Counted from the first letter of the stretch, positions 10,093 to 50,038 are shown. The stretch: DNA of 51,413 nucleotides from a virus (IMGVR_UViG_2563366798_000003:1-51413), one strand, 5' to 3'. Program-made: numbers and translations. Notes: a model not told the origin generated them from the letters alone.

Positions 10093-10385
10093 CGGGCAAA
10101 GAGGCAATTATTCATTATCTGGAGACGCACAAGAGCTTCTGTACGCCGGACGTTGCTGCGACAACAGGTGTGACATTAACCAGCATAAATCAGGCTGCGG
10201 CAAAAATGGCGCGGGCAGGAATCCTGGTCATTGATGGTAAGGTCTGGCGAACGGTGTATTACCGGTTCGCTACTAGAGAAGAACGGGAAGGAAAGGTGAG
10301 CACGAACCTGATTTTTAAGGAGTGTCGCCAGAGTGCCGCGATGAAGCGGGTGTTGGCGGTATATGGGAGATTAGTTATTACTTGA
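10089..10385 (+). CDS. ren: Ren exclusion protein
   Basis: 98 aa matching lambda Ren (MTGKEAIIHYL...REEREGK...KECRQSAAMKRVLAVYG); overlaps P stop. Confidence 0.9.
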   Translation: MTGKEAIIHYLETHKSFCTPDVAATTGVTLTSINQAAAKMARAGILVIDGKVWRTVYYRFATREEREGKVSTNLIFKECRQSAAMKRVLAVYGRLVIT

Positions 10386-10741
10386 TTTGATGGTTATCTC
10401 GAAAACATCCAATCAAATTTAATGGTTTGCTTTGTGCGGGGAACTATAACAATGTTTCTAGCTTGGTGCTGTATGAATTAGTGAATTAGTAGGGAATATA
10501 TCCACACATTGATTAACACAAAAATATTTCAGATATTAAATGTAACTCAAAGGATGAGTAATAATGGTTGTGTAGCGTATAACAGGATGCTGAGGTAGTA
10601 TTAAACAATGAATAAATCTGATTGACAAGCACCAGATAATACTGCGGGTCAATCATTAGACATGAACGCCACTAGTTACTGAGAGTAACTAATGGCGTTG
10701 TGTTTATAGTTAAGATGTTTTTTTAAAACATCAGGGGGGCT

Positions 10742-38696: not shown

Positions 38697-41600
38697 ATGG
38701 GTAAAGGCAGCAGTAAGGGGCATATCCCGCGCGAAGCGAAGGACAACCTGAAGTCCACGCAGCTGCTGAGTGTGATCGATGCCATCAGCGAAGGGCCGGT
38801 TGAAGGTCCGGTGGATGGATTAAAAAGCGTGCTGCTGAACAGTACGCCGGTGCTGGACAGTGAGGGGAATACCAATATATCCGGCGTCACGGTGGTGTTC
38901 CGGGCCGGTGAGCAGGAGCAGACACCGCCGGAGGGATTTGAATCCTCCGGCTCCGAGACGGTGCTCGGTACAGAAGTGAAATATGACACGCCGATCACCC
39001 GGACCATCACGTCGGCAAACATTGACCGTCTGCGTTTTACTTTCGGCGTGCAGGCACTGGTGGAAACCACCTCAAAGGGTGACCGGAATCCGTCGGAAGT
39101 CCGCCTGCTGGTTCAGATACAACGTAACGGTGGCTGGGTGACGGAAAAAGACATCACCATTAAGGGTAAAACCACTTCACAGTATCTGGCCTCGGTGGTG
39201 GTGGATAACCTGCCGCCGCGCCCGTTCAGTATCCGGATGCGCAGGATGACGCCGGACAGCACCACAGACCAGCTGCAGAACAAAACGCTCTGGTCGTCAT
39301 ACACCGAAATTATCGATGTGAAACAGTGCTACCCGAACACGGCACTGGTCGGCGTGCAGGTGGACTCGGAGCAGTTCGGCAGTCAGCAGGTGAGCCGTAA
39401 TTATCATCTGCGCGGGCGTATTCTGCAGGTGCCGTCGAATTATAACCCGCAGACGCGGCAATACAGCGGTATCTGGGACGGAACGTTTAAACCGGCATAC
39501 AGCAACAACATGGCCTGGTGTCTGTGGGATATGCTGACCCATCCGCGCTACGGCATGGGGAAACGTCTTGGTGCGGCGGATGTGGATAAATGGGCGCTGT
39601 ATGTCATCGGCCAGTACTGCGACCAGTCAGTGCCGGACGGCTTTGGCGGCACGGAGCCGCGCATCACCTGTAATGCGTACCTGACCACACAGCGCAAGGC
39701 GTGGGATGTGCTCAGTGATTTCTGCTCGGCGATGCGCTGTATGCCGGTATGGAACGGGCAGACGCTGACGTTCGTGCAGGACCGACCATCAGATAAGGTG
39801 TGGACCTATAACCGCAGTAATGTGGTGATGCCGGATGATGGCGCGCCGTTCCGCTACAGCTTCAGCGCCCTGAAGGACCGCCATAATGCCGTTGAGGTGA
39901 ACTGGATTGACCCGAACAACGGCTGGGAGACGGCGACAGAGCTCGTGGAGGATACGCAGGCCATTGCCCGTTACGGCCGTAACGTCACGAAGATGGATGC
40001 CTTTGGCTGTACCAGTCGGGGGCAGGCACACCGCGCCGGGCTGTGGCTGATTAAAACGGAGCTGCTGGAAACGCAGACCGTGGACTTCAGCGTGGGTGCT
40101 GAAGGGCTTCGCCATGTACCGGGGGATGTCATTGAAATCTGCGATGATGACTATGCCGGTATCAGCATCGGTGGGCGTGTGCTGGCGGTGAACAGCCAGA
40201 CCCGGACGCTGACGCTCGACCGTGAAATCACGCTGCCATCCTCCGGCACCACGCTGATAAGCCTGGTTGACGGGCAGGGGAATCCGGTCAGCGTGGAGGT
40301 CCAGTCCGTCACCGACGGTGTGAAGGTGAAAGTGAGCCGTGTTCCTGACGGCGTTGCCGGATACAGCGTGTGGGGGCTGAAGCTGCCGATGCTGCGCCAG
40401 CGCCTGTTCCGCTGTGTGAGTATCCGTGAGAACGATGACGGCACGTATGCCATCACTGCCGTGCAGCATGTACCGGAGAAAGAAGCCATCGTGGATAACG
40501 GGGCGTACTTTGACGGCGACCAGAGCGGAACGGTGAACGGTGTCACGCCGCCCGCGGTGCAGCACCTGACTGCAGAAGTCACCGCAGACAGCGGGGAATA
40601 CCAGGTGCTGGCGCGCTGGGACACGCCGAAGGTGGTGAAGGGGGGGAGCTTTATGCTTCGCCTGACCGTGGCAGCGGATGACGGCAGTGAGCGGCTGGTC
40701 AGCACGGCCAGGACGACGGAAACCACATACCGCTTCAGGCAACTGGCGCTGGGGAACTACAGGCTGACAGTCCGGGCGGTAAATGCGTGGGGGCAGCAGG
40801 GCGATCCGGCGTCGGTATCGTTCCGGATTGCCGCACCGGCAGCACCGTCGCAGATTGAGCTGACGCCGGGCTATTTTCAGATAACCGCCACGCCGCATCT
40901 TGCCGTTTATGATCCGACGGTACAGTTTGAGTTCTGGTTCTCGGAAAAGCGGATTGCGGATATCAGGCAGGTTGAAACCACAGCCAGCTATCTTGGCACG
41001 GCGCTGTACTGGATAGCTGCCAGTATCAATATTAAGCCGGGTCATGATTATTATTTTTACGTTCGCAGTGTGAACACCGTTGGCAAATCGGCATTCGTGG
41101 AGGCTGTCGGTCGGGCGAGCGATGATGCGGAAGGTTACCTGGATTTTTTCAAAGGCCAGATAACCGAATCCCATCTCGGCAAGGAGCTGCTGGAAAAAGT
41201 CGAGCTGACGGAGGATAACGCCAGCAAACTGGAGGAGTTTTCGAAAGAGTGGAAAGACGCCAACGATAAATGGAATGCCATGTGGGGCGTCAAAATTGAG
41301 CAGACCGAAGACGGCAGGCATTATGTCGCGGGGCTTGGCCTCAGCATGGAGGATACGGAGGAAGGCAAACTGAGCCAGTTTCTGGTTGCCGCTAACCGTA
41401 TCGCGTTTATTGACCCGGCAAACGGGAATGAAACGCCGATGTTTGTGGCGCAGGGCAACCAGATATTCATGAACGACGTGTTCCTGAAGTATCTGACGGC
41501 TCCCACCATTACCAGCGGCGGCAATCCTCCGGTATTTTCCCTGACACCGGACGGGCGGCTGACGGCGAAAAATGCCGATATCAGCGGTAACGTGAATGCG

Positions 41601-42110
41601 AACTCCGGGACGCTCAACAACGTCACGGTAAATGAAAACTGTACGATTAAGGGCATGCTGGAGGCGAACCAGGTCAGAGGTGACTTCGTTAAAACTGTAT
41701 CCAAACCATTTCCGAAAAAGGCTGGTACGTGGGGTAACACGGAAACACCAAACGGGACGGTTACAGTCACCATCAGTGATGATCATAACTTTGACCGTCA
41801 AATCATTATTCCGCCCATTATCTTTAACGGAATAGCGTATAGCGATCCGGGAAGTGGTAATAACCCGGGAGGTACAAGATACACGGGTTATGGTTTTGAA
41901 GTTCGCAAAAACGGTGTATTAATCGCATCCAGAGAAACTAAAGGGGCCATTCCCGGTAGCTACAGTGCGGTTATTGATATGCCGAGTGGCAGGGGAAGCG
42001 TCACTCTGGAGTTTAAGATTTTCCAGAAAGGCAATCAGTGGGCAGGTAATATCACCGATTGTACGGTGATTGTGACCAAAAAAGCCGCTTCCGGCATCAG
42101 TATTCGTTGA
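38697..42110 (+). CDS. J: central tail fibre / host specificity protein J
   Basis: 1137 aa; N-terminal about 85% matches lambda gpJ, C-terminal about 150 residues divergent. Confidence 0.95.
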
Positions 42111-42179: not shown

Positions 42180-42779
42180 ATGCGTAAACTTTATGCCGCC
42201 ATTTTTTCCGCAGCCATCTGTCTGGCCGTATCCGGTGCGCCTGCATGGGCATCTGAACATCAGTCCACGCTGAGCGCGGGGTATCTTCATGCCTCGACGA
42301 ACGTTCCCGGCAGCGATGATCTTAACGGGATTAACGTGAAATACCGTTATGAGTTTACGGACACACTGGGGCTGGTGACGTCATTCAGCTATGCAGGAGA
42401 CAAGAATCGCCAGCTTACCCGTTACAGCGATACCCGCTGGCATGAAGATTCCGTGCGTAACCGCTGGTTCAGCGTGATGGCGGGGCCGTCTGTGCGCGTG
42501 AATGAATGGTTCAGTGCTTATGCGATGGCGGGTGTGGCTTACAGCCGTGTTTCGACGTTCTCCGGGGATTATCTCCGCGTAACTGACAACAAGGGGAAAA
42601 CGCACGATGTGCTGACCGGAAGTGATGACGGTCGCCACAGCGACACGTCTCTGGCGTGGGGAGCTGGCGTGCAGTTTAACCCGACCGAATCCGTGGCCAT
42701 TGATATTGCTTATGAAGGCTCCGGCAGTGGCGACTGGCGTACTGACGGTTTCATCGTGGGTGTCGGTTATAAATTCTGA
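42180..42779 (+). CDS. lom: Ail/Lom-family outer membrane protein
   Basis: 199 aa with signal peptide and C-terminal [24 protein letters not shown] identical to lambda Lom C-terminus. Confidence 0.9.
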
Positions 42780-42843
42780 TTAGCCAGGTAACACAGTGTT
42801 ATTACAGCCCGCCGGTTCAGGCGGGCTTTTTTGTGGAGTGGAT

Positions 42844-45201
42844 ATGGCAGCAGTAAAAATCTCAGGTGTGCTGAAAGATGGTGCGGGAAAACCAATACAG
42901 AACTGCACTATTCAACTGAAGGCAAAGCGTAACAGCACCACGGTACTGGTGAACACGGTGGCCTCTGAAAATCCGGATGAAGCCGGGCGTTACAGCATGG
43001 ATGTTGAGTATGGCCAGTACAGCGTCACCCTGCTGGTTGAAGGTTTTCCGCCTTCACATGCCGGGATCATTACCGTCTATGAAGGTTCCAGACCCGGTAC
43101 GCTGAATGATTTTCTCGGTGCCATGACGGAAGATGACGTCATGCCGGAGGCATTGCGTCGTTTTGAGGCAATGGTGGAAGAAGCGGCACGCAACGCCGAA
43201 GCCGCCTCTCAGAGCGCAGCGGCGGCAAAGAAATCCGAAACGGCTGCGGCATCATCGAAGAACGCGGCGAAAACCTCAGAAACGAATGCAGCTAACAGCG
43301 CACAGGCGGCAGCGGCCTCGCAGACTGCATCGGCAAACTCCGCGACAGCAGCCAAAAAATCAGAAACCAACGCGAAAAATAGCGAGACAGCCGCAAAGAC
43401 GAGCGAAACCAACGCAAAGTCCAGCCAGACGGCAGCGAAAACCAGCGAAACGAATGCCAAAGCCAGTGAAACTGCGGCGAAAAATAGCCAGAATGCAGCA
43501 GCCGAAAGCGAGAGTGCGGCAGCTGGTTCTGCGACTTCAGCAGCTGGATCAGCAACTGCTGCGGCTAACAGCCAGAAAGCAGCGAAGACGAGCGAAACTA
43601 ACGCAAAGTCCAGCCAGACGGCAGCGAAGACCAGCGAAACGAATGCCAAAGCCAGCGAAACTGCGGCGAAAAGCAGTCAGGATGCAGCAGCTGAAAGCGA
43701 GAGTGCCGCAGCTGGTTCTGCAACAGCGGCAGCTAATAGCCAAAAAGCTGCAAAAACCAGTGAAACTAACGCAAAGACGAGTGAAACAAAAGCAGCAGCT
43801 AGCGAGACAGAAGCAACGTCAGCCGCAACAAGAGCAGAGAATGCAGCCCGGATTGCAGAAGATGCCGCTGATCCTGCTTCTGTCCCTCCGCTTCCTGATA
43901 TCTGGCTACCCTTGAATGATTCTCTGGAAGCGATAACAGGGTATGCCCCGGGCTATAAAACAATAACCATCGGCAGTGATGAAATAACAATGCCTGTTAA
44001 TGGCATATGCCAATTTAGCCGGGCTTCATCTGCAACGTATATTGATAAGTCCGGGCATATTACCGTGGCAGGGAATAACGTTCCTCGTTTTGAAAAATAT
44101 GGTTTGCTGATAGAGAATCAGCGAACAAACATGTTCGTAAATAGTTTTAATCCTGATGCCTGGAATAAAAGCGGTGGTATATCTGTAACATCATCAACAG
44201 ATGAATTTGAGTTTAAATATGGACGTTTCACGGTAGGAAGCGATATAGCAGGAACGACAACAGGGAGAAATATATGCACAGTTGCTGGTAACAAAGGCAT
44301 AGATGTGACTGGCGATGATCAGTACAGTAAAGGTCCGTATGTTACCGCGTCGTTCAGGGTAAGAAGTGATCTCAATGTTCGCGCACGTATCCGTTTTGAA
44401 CGGTATAACTCGGAAGGATACACCTTCCTTTGCGACGCCTATTTGTCATTACAGACCCATGAACTACAAATTACTGGTGGCAATGCCCAGCTATTAACAG
44501 CAAACTTTGAAATCGATCCTGGTAGTGGATGGATATACTTTCAGGCAACACTGAAATGTCTGCCAGAATGGGGAATGGTTGGTACGCAGCTGCAAATTGC
44601 AGCCGACAGAGCTGTGGGGTCTTTTGCAACAGGTGACTGGATAGAAGTAACCACCCCGCAATTCGAGTATGGTGCTTGTGCAACTTCCTTCATCATAACG
44701 ACAACAGAGCCAGCGACTCGTGCATCAGATTTATGTAAATTTCCGCTGATGAAAAATATGTATACCATGCCTTTTACGTTCATGGTGGAAGTCCATAAAA
44801 ACTGGTTTATTTCTCATAATGCTGCACCGCGTGTCATTGATTCAGAAAATCACCAGTCCGGAGGCCCATTTATTATGGGGTTTGGTTCTTCTGGAACTAT
44901 TAGTCAGGACGGTTATTCGTATTGCGATATAGGCGGGGCTAACCGACGTGTATATGAATCATGCGGAGTAAGGGATCTCGTTATGGGATTCAGGGTTAAG
45001 GCTGACGGCATGACATGCTCATTTGCAAATAAGCATATAAGCACTGAAACAAAAACAGTATGGAAATATATTCGTGAAGCAGCCGTGATTCGTATCGGGG
45101 GGCAAACGACGACAGGATTACGACACCTTAATGGTCATATAAAAAACCTCCGTTTCTGGAACAGAGCATTGTCAGATACGCAGCTTAAGGAATACGTATA
45201 A
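42844..45201 (+). CDS. stf: side tail fibre protein Stf (lambda-like N-terminus, repeat-rich middle, divergent C-terminus)
   Basis: N-terminus MAAVKISGVLKDGAGKPIQNCTIQLKAKRNSTTVLVNTVASENPDEAGRYSMDVEYGQYSV matches lambda Stf; GGAGTGG SD before ATG 42844. Confidence 0.85.
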   Translation: MAAVKISGVLKDGAGKPIQNCTIQLKAKRNSTTVLVNTVASENPDEAGRYSMDVEYGQYSVTLLVEGFPPSHAGIITVYEGSRPGTLNDFLGAMTEDDVMPEALRRFEAMVEEAARNAEAASQSAAAAKKSETAAASSKNAAKTSETNAANSAQAAAASQTASANSATAAKKSETNAKNSETAAKTSETNAKSSQTAAKTSETNAKASETAAKNSQNAAAESESAAAGSATSAAGSATAAANSQKAAKTSETNAKSSQTAAKTSETNAKASETAAKSSQDAAAESESAAAGSATAAANSQKAAKTSETNAKTSETKAAASETEATSAATRAENAARIAEDAADPASVPPLPDIWLPLNDSLEAITGYAPGYKTITIGSDEITMPVNGICQFSRASSATYIDKSGHITVAGNNVPRFEKYGLLIENQRTNMFVNSFNPDAWNKSGGISVTSSTDEFEFKYGRFTVGSDIAGTTTGRNICTVAGNKGIDVTGDDQYSKGPYVTASFRVRSDLNVRARIRFERYNSEGYTFLCDAYLSLQTHELQITGGNAQLLTANFEIDPGSGWIYFQATLKCLPEWGMVGTQLQIAADRAVGSFATGDWIEVTTPQFEYGACATSFIITTTEPATRASDLCKFPLMKNMYTMPFTFMVEVHKNWFISHNAAPRVIDSENHQSGGPFIMGFGSSGTISQDGYSYCDIGGANRRVYESCGVRDLVMGFRVKADGMTCSFANKHISTETKTVWKYIREAAVIRIGGQTTTGLRHLNGHIKNLRFWNRALSDTQLKEYV

Positions 45202-45470
45202 TGCGGGATATAACATTACGATTCGATAACAGAGAACAGTTTAACGCAATTGTATATGACAGTGGCCTGTTCAGTCTTGAAGAAGAAAACGGGGTTCTTG
45301 TTGATGTTATTGGCTGCATTATCGATTACGAGGAGCCAGAAAACGAAAGATGTACAGGCATTGATCGCGGTGGTTTTTTCGTAAACATGAGGATTGTTGA
45401 TAGCAGTAAAAACATATCTTCTTTAATGCCTTTCATTACGACAGATCAGCATGTAAGGACATGGGCTTAA
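45201..45470 (+). CDS. hypothetical protein (89 aa) in tail-fibre module
   Basis: ORF overlapping stf stop (TAATG); AT-rich; no family recognised. Confidence 0.45.
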   Translation: MRDITLRFDNREQFNAIVYDSGLFSLEEENGVLVDVIGCIIDYEEPENERCTGIDRGGFFVNMRIVDSSKNISSLMPFITTDQHVRTWA

Positions 45471-45482
45471 TGGAGTAAGACA

Positions 45483-46523
45483 ATGGTTACAAAAACAGTA
45501 ATTCCTGATGACATCAAAACGCTAAAATCCGATGTTAGTAAACTAAAAACTGATCAAGGAAGCTATGCAACAAAATCATATGTAGACAATAAAACAACAT
45601 GGAATAGTTATTGCAATGTAATCTATGATCAAAAGGCATTGCCGACCACTGGAACTATATTTAGCGGTAAGATTCACTTGTCAAATAAGGCAGGAGAAAC
45701 CGAAAACGCTTATAGCGAGATGTACACCAGAAAAAATATTGACGGCACTAAAGATACAATGACAAGGATTGTCACACACAACGGAACAAAAGGTATCTTC
45801 TGGGATTTTAGCGATCTTTACGGTGGGACATTGATTTTCCCAGGAAATGAAGGTTACTTAAAAATGGGTAAGTGCCTCATGTCTTATGGGAATCGTGTTG
45901 ATAACGCCATTATTAAATTTGATTACACAGACACATTACAAATCAAATACGCTAATCATGGGTCAACCATGACATTAAACACACAGGGAACCGCTCACGC
46001 TGGCGTAACAACTAGACTATGGGGTAGTTCTAGCCGTCCGGTTGTTTATGAAGTTGGCGTAGATGAGGCTCTGTATATGTTCTACGCACAGAAAACTACC
46101 AGCAATACCTACGAATTAACGGTTAACGGCGCGTGCAATGCAAGTGCATTTAATCAAGGCTCTGACCGGGATCTGAAAGACAATATTCAGGTGATCGATA
46201 ATGCAACCGACCGCATTCGTAAAATGAACGGCTATACATACACGCTTAAAGAAAACGGTATGCCTTACGCTGGTGTTATTGCACAAGAAACCCTGGAAGC
46301 CATCCCCGAAGCCGTAGGGGCTATGATGAAATATCCAGACGGCGGGAGTGGATTAGATGGAGAAGAAGGTGAACGGTATTACACTGTAGATTATTCTGGT
46401 GTTACTGGCTTGCTTGTTCAGGTAGCCAGAGAGTCAGACGACAGGATAACAGCACTGGAAGAAGAAAACGCAGAATTAAGACAAAGATTATCTGCAATTG
46501 AGGCGGTGCTTGCGTCTAAATAA
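45483..46523 (+). CDS. tail fibre/tailspike-like protein with C-terminal intramolecular chaperone (peptidase S74-type) domain
   Basis: 346 aa; C-terminal region (SDRDLKDNIQVID...GYTYTLKENGMPYAGVIAQE...YYTVDYSGVTGLLVQ...coiled coil) resembles autoproteolytic chaperone domains of phage fibres. Confidence 0.65.
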   Translation: MVTKTVIPDDIKTLKSDVSKLKTDQGSYATKSYVDNKTTWNSYCNVIYDQKALPTTGTIFSGKIHLSNKAGETENAYSEMYTRKNIDGTKDTMTRIVTHNGTKGIFWDFSDLYGGTLIFPGNEGYLKMGKCLMSYGNRVDNAIIKFDYTDTLQIKYANHGSTMTLNTQGTAHAGVTTRLWGSSSRPVVYEVGVDEALYMFYAQKTTSNTYELTVNGACNASAFNQGSDRDLKDNIQVIDNATDRIRKMNGYTYTLKENGMPYAGVIAQETLEAIPEAVGAMMKYPDGGSGLDGEEGERYYTVDYSGVTGLLVQVARESDDRITALEEENAELRQRLSAIEAVLASK

Positions 46524-47535: not shown

Positions 47536-48285
47536 ATGGATTATGTTTGCTCCGTAGTTTTCATCTGTCAATCATTTGATTTAATTATAAACAGGAGAGT
47601 TATCTCGTTCAAAAAAAATTCATTGTTTATTGTAAGCGACAAAATTAGAAGAGAGTTACCAGTATGCCCCTCTAAACTAAGAATTGTTGATATAGATAAG
47701 AAAACATGTTTATCCTTTTTTATCGACGTGAATAATGAGTTGCCTGGCAAATTTACTCTTGATAAGAATGGCTATATTGCTGAAGAGGAACCTCCATTAT
47801 CGCTTGTTTTTTCTCTGTTTGAAGGGATTAAAATAGCAGACTCACACTCCCTTTGGTTAAAAGAAAGACTATGTATATCCTTACTTGCCATGTTCAAAAA
47901 ACGCGAAAGTGTAAATTCATTTATACTAACAAATATAAATACATTTACCTGTAAAATTACTGGAATAATCAGTTTTAATATTGAGCGGCAATGGCATTTA
48001 AAAGATATTGCGGAATTGATTTATACGAGTGAAAGTTTAATAAAAAAAAGATTAAGGGATGAAGAAACGTCATTTACTGAAATATTGAGAGATACTAGGA
48101 TGAGGTATGCAAAAAAACTCATAACTTCAAACTCTTATTCTATCAATGTCGTAGCCCAGAAATGTGGCTATAACAGTACTTCATATTTCATATGTGCATT
48201 TAAAGATTATTATGGTGTCACGCCATCTCATTATTTTGAGAAAATAATCGGCGTCACAGATGGAATAAACAAAACAATTGACTGA
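47536..48285 (+). CDS. appY: AraC-family regulator, AppY-like
   Basis: 249 aa, strongly AT-rich, C-terminal AraC HTH; sequence and position next to ompT match my recollection of E. coli AppY. Confidence 0.75.
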
Positions 48286-48534
48286 TAATATTTATTACAA
48301 GTTGTCTACATGTTAATTATAATATTATACAGCGTGTTTTTTGATGTGATATTCTGGAACCATTAATTTGTAATTGGGTTGCTGTCGCCTATTTTATACA
48401 CACTATAATTGATGGTTTTCTATGTGATTTAGTTAATAACCTTCTGGGTTTATTTTAAGGGTTAATTGTTACATTGAAATGGCTAGTTATTCCCCGGGGC
48501 GATTTTCACCTCGGGGAAATTTTAGTTGGCGTTC

Positions 48535-49488
48535 TTAAAATGTGTACTTAAGACCAGCAGTAGTGATGAAGTTATAGTTTTCTATGCCTGCTCCATTTTT
48601 GCTGTAGTCTGAAGTGTTATTATTGTGATCATAAAGTGAAGTATTACCTTTTTTATTCGTAACCCGATTCCATGCGCCTTCAACATAAACTTTTGCGTTA
48701 GGTGTGACGTAATAACCTGCATTGACTGCAACAGAATAGTAATTTTGGTCTTTGACCTTACTGCGATAAGTGATTCTTTTTCCCGGGTCATAGTGTTCAT
48801 CGTTATCAGATGATTCCACCCAGCCGCTGTATTTAAATGTGCCACCTAGCTCAAAATCTTCATAACGATAACTTCCAGTCAAGCCAATGTAGGGCATTTT
48901 AAAACGTTGTTTGTAGCCGATTGCTCTTTCTCCATTCGGGAAGGAGCCGATATCATCTCTGAATCCCTCCTCAGAACTGTAGATATAGGAACCACCTCTG
49001 GCTGTAAAGCTATAACGGCTTTCCTGATATCCGGCCATGAGTCCCAGGCGGTAATTGGGTTCGTTGAGGAGCCAGCCTTTGATATTCAGATCAAATTCGT
49101 TGGCATAATTGAGTTGTGTATCAGGATGTCTACTTTCATCCGTCCAGGTTCCGGGGTTACTGGAATCCATCCAGTCCTGATCGACCATATTGCCACCTCG
49201 GCTGCCGAGTGTTGTCCAGCCAGCAGCCCCGATAGATATCTGAGGCATCAAATCCCAATTAATTGCACCTTTAATAATTGCAGCGTTATTGAATTTCCAG
49301 TCAAGTTGACTGACTTTTCGGCTTCCTTCTTCGGCTAGATAAACACGCTCTTTTGTTTTTCCGCTCAGAGTTCCAAGACTAATGTCCGCATTTATGTTGT
49401 CAGGAGTAAACGATAAAGTCTCGGTAGAAGCAAAAGAGTTGATCGCAATAGGGGTTGTCAGGACTATTCCCAGAAGTTTCGCCCGCAT
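48535..49488 (-). CDS. ompT: outer membrane protease OmpT (omptin)
   Basis: 317 aa matching E. coli OmpT (MRAKLLGIVLTTPIAI...TAGLKYTF). Confidence 0.95.
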   Translation of the reverse strand: MRAKLLGIVLTTPIAINSFASTETLSFTPDNINADISLGTLSGKTKERVYLAEEGSRKVSQLDWKFNNAAIIKGAINWDLMPQISIGAAGWTTLGSRGGNMVDQDWMDSSNPGTWTDESRHPDTQLNYANEFDLNIKGWLLNEPNYRLGLMAGYQESRYSFTARGGSYIYSSEEGFRDDIGSFPNGERAIGYKQRFKMPYIGLTGSYRYEDFELGGTFKYSGWVESSDNDEHYDPGKRITYRSKVKDQNYYSVAVNAGYYVTPNAKVYVEGAWNRVTNKKGNTSLYDHNNNTSDYSKNGAGIENYNFITTAGLKYTF

Positions 49489-50038
49489 AAAAGTTCTCCA
49501 TTCAATCGTTTTAATGATTGAATATGTATTTTTTATATCTAACTTAATGAGTCAATTACATATTGCTCCACTGTTTATATTTTGTTTAGTATTGAATGAT
49601 TATCACAATGCGCTATCTGTTTTTGGTTTAATTATCTGTTATTGTTTCATATTGCGGTTTTACTGTGTGGTTTTTTTATGATTTTGTGGTGCTTTTATCT
49701 ATTTAAGTGCCATGCCTTTAGAGGCATATAAGCGAAAATAGCATGAGGTTTATCCTCAATTACTATGTTTTTTAGTACAAAAAAGAGGGACAAAACTGAG
49801 ACACATAAGGCCTCACAAAGGTCTGCAAGGCTTCACATGTATTGAGATGTTAATAAAATGTAGGCTTGTAATTTTGATATAAATGGTAGATAAAACCTTT
49901 CCCCAAAATAAAAACGAACGTCAATAAAATCAAACGGTTGAATAAAGTTGATTTTGGCTAATAAAAAGACAATAAAATAATTTTTATCATTAAATATCAA
50001 TGAATTGAACTTAATGTTTTTATATACTGCTGCGCCAT

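Follow-up and report, generated by a model that had tools for sequence, protein, structure and literature searches.

Tail fibres of lambdoid, P2 and T-even phages are mosaics in which conserved proximal parts are combined with swappable distal receptor-binding modules, and the internal repeats of phage tail fibre genes act as recombination substrates. The stf gene, the family of its product and the coiled-coil nature of the Stf segment considered here are already known, and expansion and contraction of fibre repeats is a familiar theme. In the side tail fibre (Stf) of Ur-lambda, the collar domain attaches the fibre to the tail (PMC12617516). Residues 102–393 of the same protein form a proximal coiled coil according to cryo-EM/ET and AlphaFold3; a trimeric bundle was resolved where the rod begins, and the segment was seen as a rigid rod (PMC12617516). 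Engineered chimeras that join the N-terminus of lambda Stf to a heterologous C-terminus are functional (PMC11338833).

We analyzed a stretch of viral DNA of 51,413 nucleotides (IMGVR_UViG_2563366798_000003:1-51413, hereafter the window) that encodes such a fibre. Like Ur-lambda Stf, the window Stf has the N-terminal collar domain, with residues 3–95 matching the solved Ur-lambda Stf N-domain (9e7m, chain Ta) at E=4.4e-48, then a short linker and, at the corresponding place, a long array of Ala/Ser-rich heptads, and the gene order J-lom-stf is that of lambda. In contrast, the array is 231 aa long in the window and about 290 aa in lambda, its sequence differs, and a 63-aa duplicated unit within it is not lambda's arrangement. 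The C-terminal module is unrelated to the OmpC-binding tip of lambda and has a GTA_spike_fiber-type domain (NF048003) instead.

The E. coli prophage Stf alleles of 791–792 aa (PHROG 1419; phage 2G7b and the APEC O1 tail fibre, clusters P0199 and P0170) share the architecture of the window Stf, about 96% DNA identity up to the end of the second copy of the unit, the duplicated unit itself and a total of 33 heptads. They differ in that their second copy has the full nine heptads (9+9), in the tail of the array and in a divergent C-terminal module, so that identity over the whole protein is 66–70% and no megablast match extends past query base 891. The L-shaped tail fibre pb1 of T5 (PDB 8hqz chain d) also has an N-proximal Ala/Ser/Glu/Lys-rich segment, which appears to be the same kind of shaft, but the similarity is weak and composition-driven (window aa 150–346 against 8hqz_d aa 33–227, E=1.7e-6), and pb1 has other attachment and tip domains and comes from another phage family. 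Set against the general shuffling of phage fibres, the window repeat is a defined 63-aa module of putative coiled coil that occurs once, twice or three times.

The stf gene, its domains and its mosaic joint

The gene and its domains are as follows.

42844..45201, + strand: stf, lambda-type side tail fibre gene, 785 aa (ORF list; RefSeq CDS WP_001516233.1, same coordinates in NZ_CP120568.1)
42850..43239, + strand: N-terminal collar domain, aa 3-132 (Pfam PF08400 phage_tail_N)
43186..43878, + strand: array of 33 uninterrupted heptads, aa 115-345, read as the proximal coiled-coil shaft (heptad layout)
43879..45198, + strand: short linker and C-terminal receptor-binding module, divergent "type A" (NCBIfam, DNA comparison)
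44107-44724, + strand: GTA_spike_fiber-type domain, aa 422-627 (NCBIfam NF048003, E=2.1e-12, 47.9 bits, cut-off 36)

The ORF list extends stf upstream to a GTG at 42796, and RefSeq starts it at the ATG at 42844. We place the start at ATG 42844, on the basis of the RefSeq record and the lambda-like N-terminus MAAVKISG that follows. The gene is 100% identical to its counterpart in the closed chromosome of E. coli strain 582 (NZ_CP120568.1), which is annotated with an intact lambdoid prophage inserted in icd. Both the ORF list and the RefSeq annotation give the order gpJ (38697-42110), lom (42180-42779), stf, placing stf 3' of gpJ and lom in the lambdoid tail gene cluster, where an Stf gene is expected.

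The product is a lambda-type side tail fibre. Its RefSeq name is prophage tail fiber N-terminal domain-containing protein; the match to PHROG 1419 ("tail protein") runs end to end (positions 1-793/793), and PF08400, the collar domain characteristic of Stf and homologous to lambda Stf residues 1-94, matches with E=2.5e-66 and 222 bits against a cut-off of 26.6. By homology to Ur-lambda, the window Stf would be trimeric and attached through this collar.

DNA comparison located a mosaic joint within the gene. Against phages 2G7b, ev207, Tritos and HannyBb, stf showed about 96% identity up to query base 891 and none thereafter. Base 891 is window position 43734, at the end of the second copy of the duplicated unit; the array therefore lies on the conserved side of the joint with the receptor-binding module. 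The functional lambda Stf fusions (PMC11338833) agree with this layout of collar, array and tip.

A tandem duplication within a continuous heptad array

The preliminary description of this DNA, made by eye from the sequence, had proposed an imperfect tandem duplication of a 168–189-bp unit inside stf, with the second unit lacking a 21-bp segment. We confirmed an imperfect in-frame duplication, with head-to-tail copies whose lengths are multiples of three, made up of the following elements.

43396..43584, + strand: copy 1 of the duplicated unit, 189 bp, nine heptads, 63 aa (Tandem Repeats Finder, alignment)
43522..43563, + strand: adjacent AGSATSA and AGSATAA heptads of copy 1 (copy 2 has one AGSAT heptad only, at 43711-43731)
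43585..43752, + strand: copy 2 of the unit, 168 bp, eight heptads, 56 aa (local alignment)
43753..43773, + strand: extra KTSETNA heptad restarting the unit and matching the beginning of copy 2 at 18/21 nt, which brings the total to about 2.1 copies

Tandem Repeats Finder reported a period of 189 at 43381-43721 (1.8 copies, 91% matches, score 591) and again at 43392-43794 (2.1 copies, 82% matches, 3% indels, score 546), with periods of 21 and 42 nt nested inside. When the region 43100-43900 was compared with itself, the check that had been suggested, the tandem structure was visible; all strong self-offsets were multiples of 21 nt, and 189 was the strongest. The boundaries first given (43398, 43587 and 43775) lie no more than 2 nt from codon and heptad boundaries, and the Ala/Ser/Thr/Lys-rich peptide first quoted for the repeat is exact. 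In the stf frame, copy 1 reads as the nine heptads KTSETNA, KSSQTAA, KTSETNA, KASETAA, KNSQNAA, AESESAA, AGSATSA, AGSATAA and ANSQKAA.

Local alignment of the two copies contained a single gap, of 21 bp and hence one heptad, in copy 2; the segment missing there is one of the two AGSAT heptads of copy 1. With the gap put at the second of these the copies are identical at 151/168 nt and differ at 17, and shifting it between heptads 7 and 8 gives 150 or 151 matches of 168. Most codon differences between the copies (12–15) are synonymous and only 2–3 are non-synonymous, which indicates that the duplication is not recent and that the protein sequence is under constraint. We compared the repeat with arrays in which the order of the 33 heptads had been shuffled. 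The best 126-nt diagonal of the window has 117/126 matches; shuffled arrays gave 83.4 ± 3.7 with a maximum of 101, and none of 1000 shuffles reached 117/126. Chance is thus excluded as the source of the repeat.

The duplication is not an isolated repeat but the most recent, top layer of a continuous array. Thirty-three heptads of the consensus [K/A]-x-S-[E/A/Q]-T-[A/N]-A (motif xxSxxAA) run through 231 residues with no break in phase, the sustained heptad periodicity expected of a coiled-coil shaft. Serine occupies heptad position 3 in 29/33 and alanine position 7 in 32/33, a 4/3 spacing like that of the a and d core positions. These Ser and Ala residues are unusually small compared with the core of a canonical coiled coil, a property that counts against a coiled-coil reading.

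From its position and its heptads we take the array to be the fibre's proximal coiled-coil shaft, which by homology with Ur-lambda would be alpha-helical and trimeric. PhiR70_1 has a lambda-like Stf whose array can be aligned with that of the window. An AF2 model of the monomer predicted helix at 102-226 and 237-340, at low confidence (pLDDT 55–69 over the array, mean 46.6 overall), and its sole helix break, aa 227-236, falls at the two Gly-containing AGSAT heptads of copy 1. The full-length model had a pTM of 0.31 and pLDDT below 50 in the C-terminal part, and the helix prediction is weak on its own.

Instead of a coiled coil, the array might form a fibre fold that is not helical, or be a flexible linker of low complexity, as its low-complexity composition and the low AF2 confidence would allow. 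Pfam also assigned no repeat family to it: PF03406 (Phage_fiber_2 tail fibre repeat) had no match in the window protein at E<=0.01, and among relatives matched only a distant Salmonella protein (P0092). However, a strict seven-residue register is kept along 231 residues, most length variants among relatives are in phase, AF2 gives continuous helix, and cryo-EM/ET shows the homologous segment in lambda as a rigid rod that has a trimeric bundle (PMC12617516). We consider a linker or non-helical fold improbable, and retain the coiled-coil shaft as the reading of the array.

The repeat had also been said to create spurious ORFs in other frames, and four such ORFs are present.

43133..43915, + strand: alternative-frame ORF, 260 aa, Arg/Gln/Lys-rich (ORF list; judged spurious)
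43209..43649, - strand: antisense ORF, 146 aa (ORF list; judged spurious)
43292-43555, - strand: antisense ORF, 87 aa (ORF list)
43549-43743, - strand: antisense ORF, 64 aa (ORF list)

At 260 and 146 aa, the two longest are long enough to raise the question of whether one of them, for example 43133-43915 on the + strand, is a real overlapping gene. Yet the ORFs lie wholly within a conserved gene, the differences between copies are mostly synonymous in the stf frame, and the composition of the ORFs is that of GCN, AAR, ACN and AGC codons read out of frame; nor did Pfam find a family match in the three ORFs tested (43133-43915 + and two antisense). We give practically no credence to an overlapping gene and judge the extra ORFs spurious: a codon repeat poor in stops, inside a gene conserved in the stf frame, is expected to produce them.

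Copy number within the allele and among relatives

That reads might reveal a collapse artefact had been raised with the first description. Related database proteins are often truncated at contig ends in or after the repeat region, and the sole one-copy form with the window C-terminal type (P0166) comes from a 2.2-kb contig, but nothing specific points to a repeat collapsed or expanded during assembly here. The window gene is 100% identical to that of a closed chromosome, dozens of complete genomes assembled independently share its arrangement, as do isolated phages, and the copies differ at 17/168 positions, so reads can separate them.

The gene is 2358 bp long in 40/40 of the complete E. coli genomes listed (full-length matches at 98.1–100% identity) and in 3/3 phage genomes that cover all of it (PhiR55_1, PhiR47_1 and PhiR11_1); a fourth phage, PhiR11_1_star, matches stf bases 7-2358 in register. 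To read copy number from alignment spacing, we used a synthetic query consisting of stf with copy 1 deleted. In 60/60 listed genomes with the window allele, this query aligned in two pieces that together spanned the query length plus 189 bp. Those 60 were drawn from about 127–131 complete genomes with the allele, and a rare length variant may occur among the others. With the 40/40 and 60/60 listed genomes and the three phages in agreement, collapse is excluded for the window, and an assembly artefact is scarcely conceivable. As far as seen, then, the 9+8 arrangement is fixed within the window allele, with no length variant in finished genomes among the matches listed. The sister allele is almost as uniform, with two copies in 59/60 listed complete genomes.

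The same data bear on the claim that such repeats are prone to slippage and recombination. In its strongest form this would make stf a hypervariable contingency locus, with high-frequency slippage and fibre-length heterogeneity within populations. The tandem structure with its 21-bp periodicity and the existence of length variants among relatives are in keeping with such a locus. Among the genomes listed, though, close strains with the same allele showed no length differences: the gene was 2358 bp in 40/40 complete genomes and the three full-coverage phages, and the two-copy spacing was found in 60/60 genomes with the window allele. Moreover, a unit as long as 189 bp, with about 10% divergence, sets stf apart from short-repeat contingency loci. 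That the two copies are near-fixed argues against frequent switching, and we regard a contingency locus as very improbable. Recombination does fit the data; "prone" overstates its rate, since the window allele is invariant in the finished genomes seen.

Comparison of repeat number across related prophages, another suggested check, revealed one, two or three copies. For each of 201 related proteins, array length was taken as the distance separating two fixed motifs, ARNAEAA and PLPD[IV]W. These distances replaced a count of gap lengths in pairwise protein alignments, which had been uninformative, its signal being swamped by small gaps in the divergent linker that lies between array and C-terminal module. 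Because the 201 proteins were gathered by similarity to a two-copy query and many are partial, the class frequencies that follow are biased. Arrays ranged from 18 to 42 heptads, with the unit present once (24 heptads), twice (32–33) or three times (42). Thus the idea that the repeat could vary fibre length holds over evolutionary time. The array length was in heptad phase in 193/201 relatives and out of phase in 8/201, and about 80% of length variants keep the phase; heptad phase is favoured, not absolute.

With the window C-terminal type, 78 clusters had 33 heptads and one, P0166, had 24; coming from a 2.2-kb contig, this one-copy form could reflect collapse. With the sister C-terminal type, 33 heptads were again found in 78 clusters, along with 42 in 3, 32 in 4, 31 in 2, 24 in 10 and 18 in 13, among others. 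Unit number varies in reliable assemblies as well. Finished sequences with a one-copy form are those of phage IdasGreatGrand (731 aa) and of E. coli MSB1_4I, a closed chromosome (738 aa); two-copy forms include the window and 2G7b, the 9+9 form being that of the very common 791–792-aa alleles; and the three-copy proteins P0163–P0165 (854 aa, 42 heptads, in the order copy 1, copy 1, copy 2) come from contigs of up to 580 kb. Single-heptad indels occur among relatives too, and in other alleles an analogous loss of one heptad leaves 32. Two of the length variants within the 18–42-heptad range, IdasGreatGrand and PhiR49_2, are isolated, viable phages.

Unit gain and loss, and what it means for the fibre

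The variants themselves carry traces of how units are gained and lost. At the DNA level, heptads 1–6 of the single unit of IdasGreatGrand match copy 1 (20–21/21 nt each) and heptads 7–9 match copy 2 (20–21/21), with scores of 14–17 per heptad against the wrong copy. The one-copy unit is thus chimeric, with a copy-1 head and a copy-2 tail, which is the product expected of unequal homologous crossing-over; the three-copy form, with its 1-1-2 order, is a product of the reciprocal kind. In addition, almost every combination of the polymorphisms K[N/S]SQ[N/V/D/A]AA and A[E/Q]SESAA is seen in one copy or the other when alleles are compared. Their being shared by both copies points to exchange between copies or between alleles.

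We think it very probable that the feature is an in-frame duplication of a nine-heptad module in the proximal coiled-coil shaft of Stf, whose length has been changed by recombination or slippage. In this model, the shaft would connect the exchangeable C-terminal receptor-binding module with the collar domain at the N-terminus that binds the tail tip. Since the array is 21-bp periodic, misaligned homologous recombination or replication slippage could add or remove heptads or whole 189-bp units, and products that keep the heptad phase would predominate. The eight-heptad copy 2 of the window equals the nine-heptad second copy of 2G7b minus its eighth heptad. The 9+8 form likely arose by duplication, after which either copy 2 lost an AGSA-type heptad or copy 1 gained one.

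A coiled coil rises by about 0.15 nm per residue. By this value each unit of 63 residues should account for about 9 nm, in a rod of about 34 nm, so that an extra unit would alter the reach of the receptor-binding tip and leave the fold as it is. We infer this effect of unit number on length, and any consequence that it may have for fitness.

Whether the module serves any function is where explanations of the feature diverge. The duplication may be a neutral relic that arose once and spread with a successful stf N-terminal module, having no adaptive role, with the length variants as rare and nearly neutral accidents. Two copies in 60/60 listed genomes with the window allele and 59/60 with the sister allele speak for this, as does the divergence of the copies (about 10%, mostly at synonymous sites), which indicates that the duplication is old and stable. 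Neutrality fits most of the data, and it departs from our preferred account, duplication followed by recombination or slippage, only on whether the feature functions. The persistence of 18–42-heptad variants in viable phages indicates that a wide range of lengths is tolerated and neither proves nor excludes tuning. We find a neutral relic quite plausible, though we lean slightly away from it.

At the other extreme, the 63-residue module might be a length-tuning cassette, with crossing-over switching between one, two and three units in steps of about 9 nm and selection matching the reach of the fibre to the thickness of the host O-antigen or capsule, or to the length of the central J fibre. In that case the AGSAT heptads, which contain Gly and lie at the predicted helix break, may be a built-in flex point. 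We consider such tuning unlikely, if conceivable, in each of these forms.

A literature search found no paper describing this polymorphism of one, two or three copies of an stf module. The variable module is a small addition to what is known, and in-frame duplication is an ordinary route by which phage fibres change in length. There are practical uses: in annotation, the alternative-frame ORFs should be ignored and stf started at ATG 42844, and in assembly quality control the repeat region is a plausible point of breakage or collapse in short-read assemblies. For the engineering of chimeric Stf proteins, the natural range of 18–42 heptads indicates tolerance of shaft length and marks the end of the array as a natural fusion point. 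Minor on its own, the stf repeat shows how a lambdoid side fibre is built, from a collar, a heptad rod and a swappable tip, and how the length of the rod changes by steps of whole heptads or whole modules.

The prophage, its insertion site and its cargo

The annotation of record NZ_CP120568.1 (E. coli strain 582) shows the window, from 1 to 51413, as a lambdoid prophage that is complete and has icd as its insertion site. The features of its ends, early region and tail fibre region are as follows.

1-51413: annotated gene order icd-int-xis ... stf ... appY-ompT-icd (fragment)-iraM (right end about 47536-49500)
about 10200-10500 (+; record 2856872-2857174, -): ren, a pseudogene by annotation (internal stop)
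45201-46523: region 3' of stf, an 89-aa ORF followed by a second fibre protein gene (PHROG, Pfam, annotation)

The early region also carries, by annotation, a YdaT toxin-domain gene and the efflux gene emrE. The window shares its accessory genes with the defective DLP12 of K-12 (emrE, ybcK, ybcN, ninE, ybcO, rusA, ylcG, essD, rrrD, appY and ompT). From this gene set and the insertion in icd, the prophage appears to be related to DLP12 but intact, to occupy the e14 attachment site and to have appY and ompT as cargo.

Genes directly after stf

The start codon of the 89-aa ORF (PHROG 1361) overlaps the stop codon of stf, the side tail fibre gene. The second fibre protein encoded beyond it (346 aa, PHROG 4563) ends in a Peptidase_S74 intramolecular-chaperone domain (PF13884, E=8.7e-14). 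A lambda-type tfa gene is absent, and the annotation has only a tfa remnant, further downstream.

Continuity of the Stf shaft

In a low-confidence model, the sole gap in the predicted shaft helix falls at the Gly-containing heptads AGSATSA AGSATAA (43522-43563, Stf aa 227-240), which are also the site of the length difference between the two tandem copies in the heptad array. At that low model confidence, the shaft may have a flex point here. In a few related Stf proteins, mostly clusters of one sequence each (P0095, P0098, P0086, P0093, P0076, P0081 and P0186), the array length does not divide by 7; examples are deletions of 30 aa in P0095 and 41 aa in P0098. Such lengths would break the continuity of heptad register in these relatives.

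Spread of the collar-plus-array DNA in E. coli

Of 5426 complete E. coli genomes, 4823 gave megablast matches to the DNA encoding the N-terminal collar and the array (42844-43734), at a median of 2 and a maximum of 14 places per genome. By this distribution, the collar-plus-array is a widespread substrate for recombination between prophages sharing one host genome.
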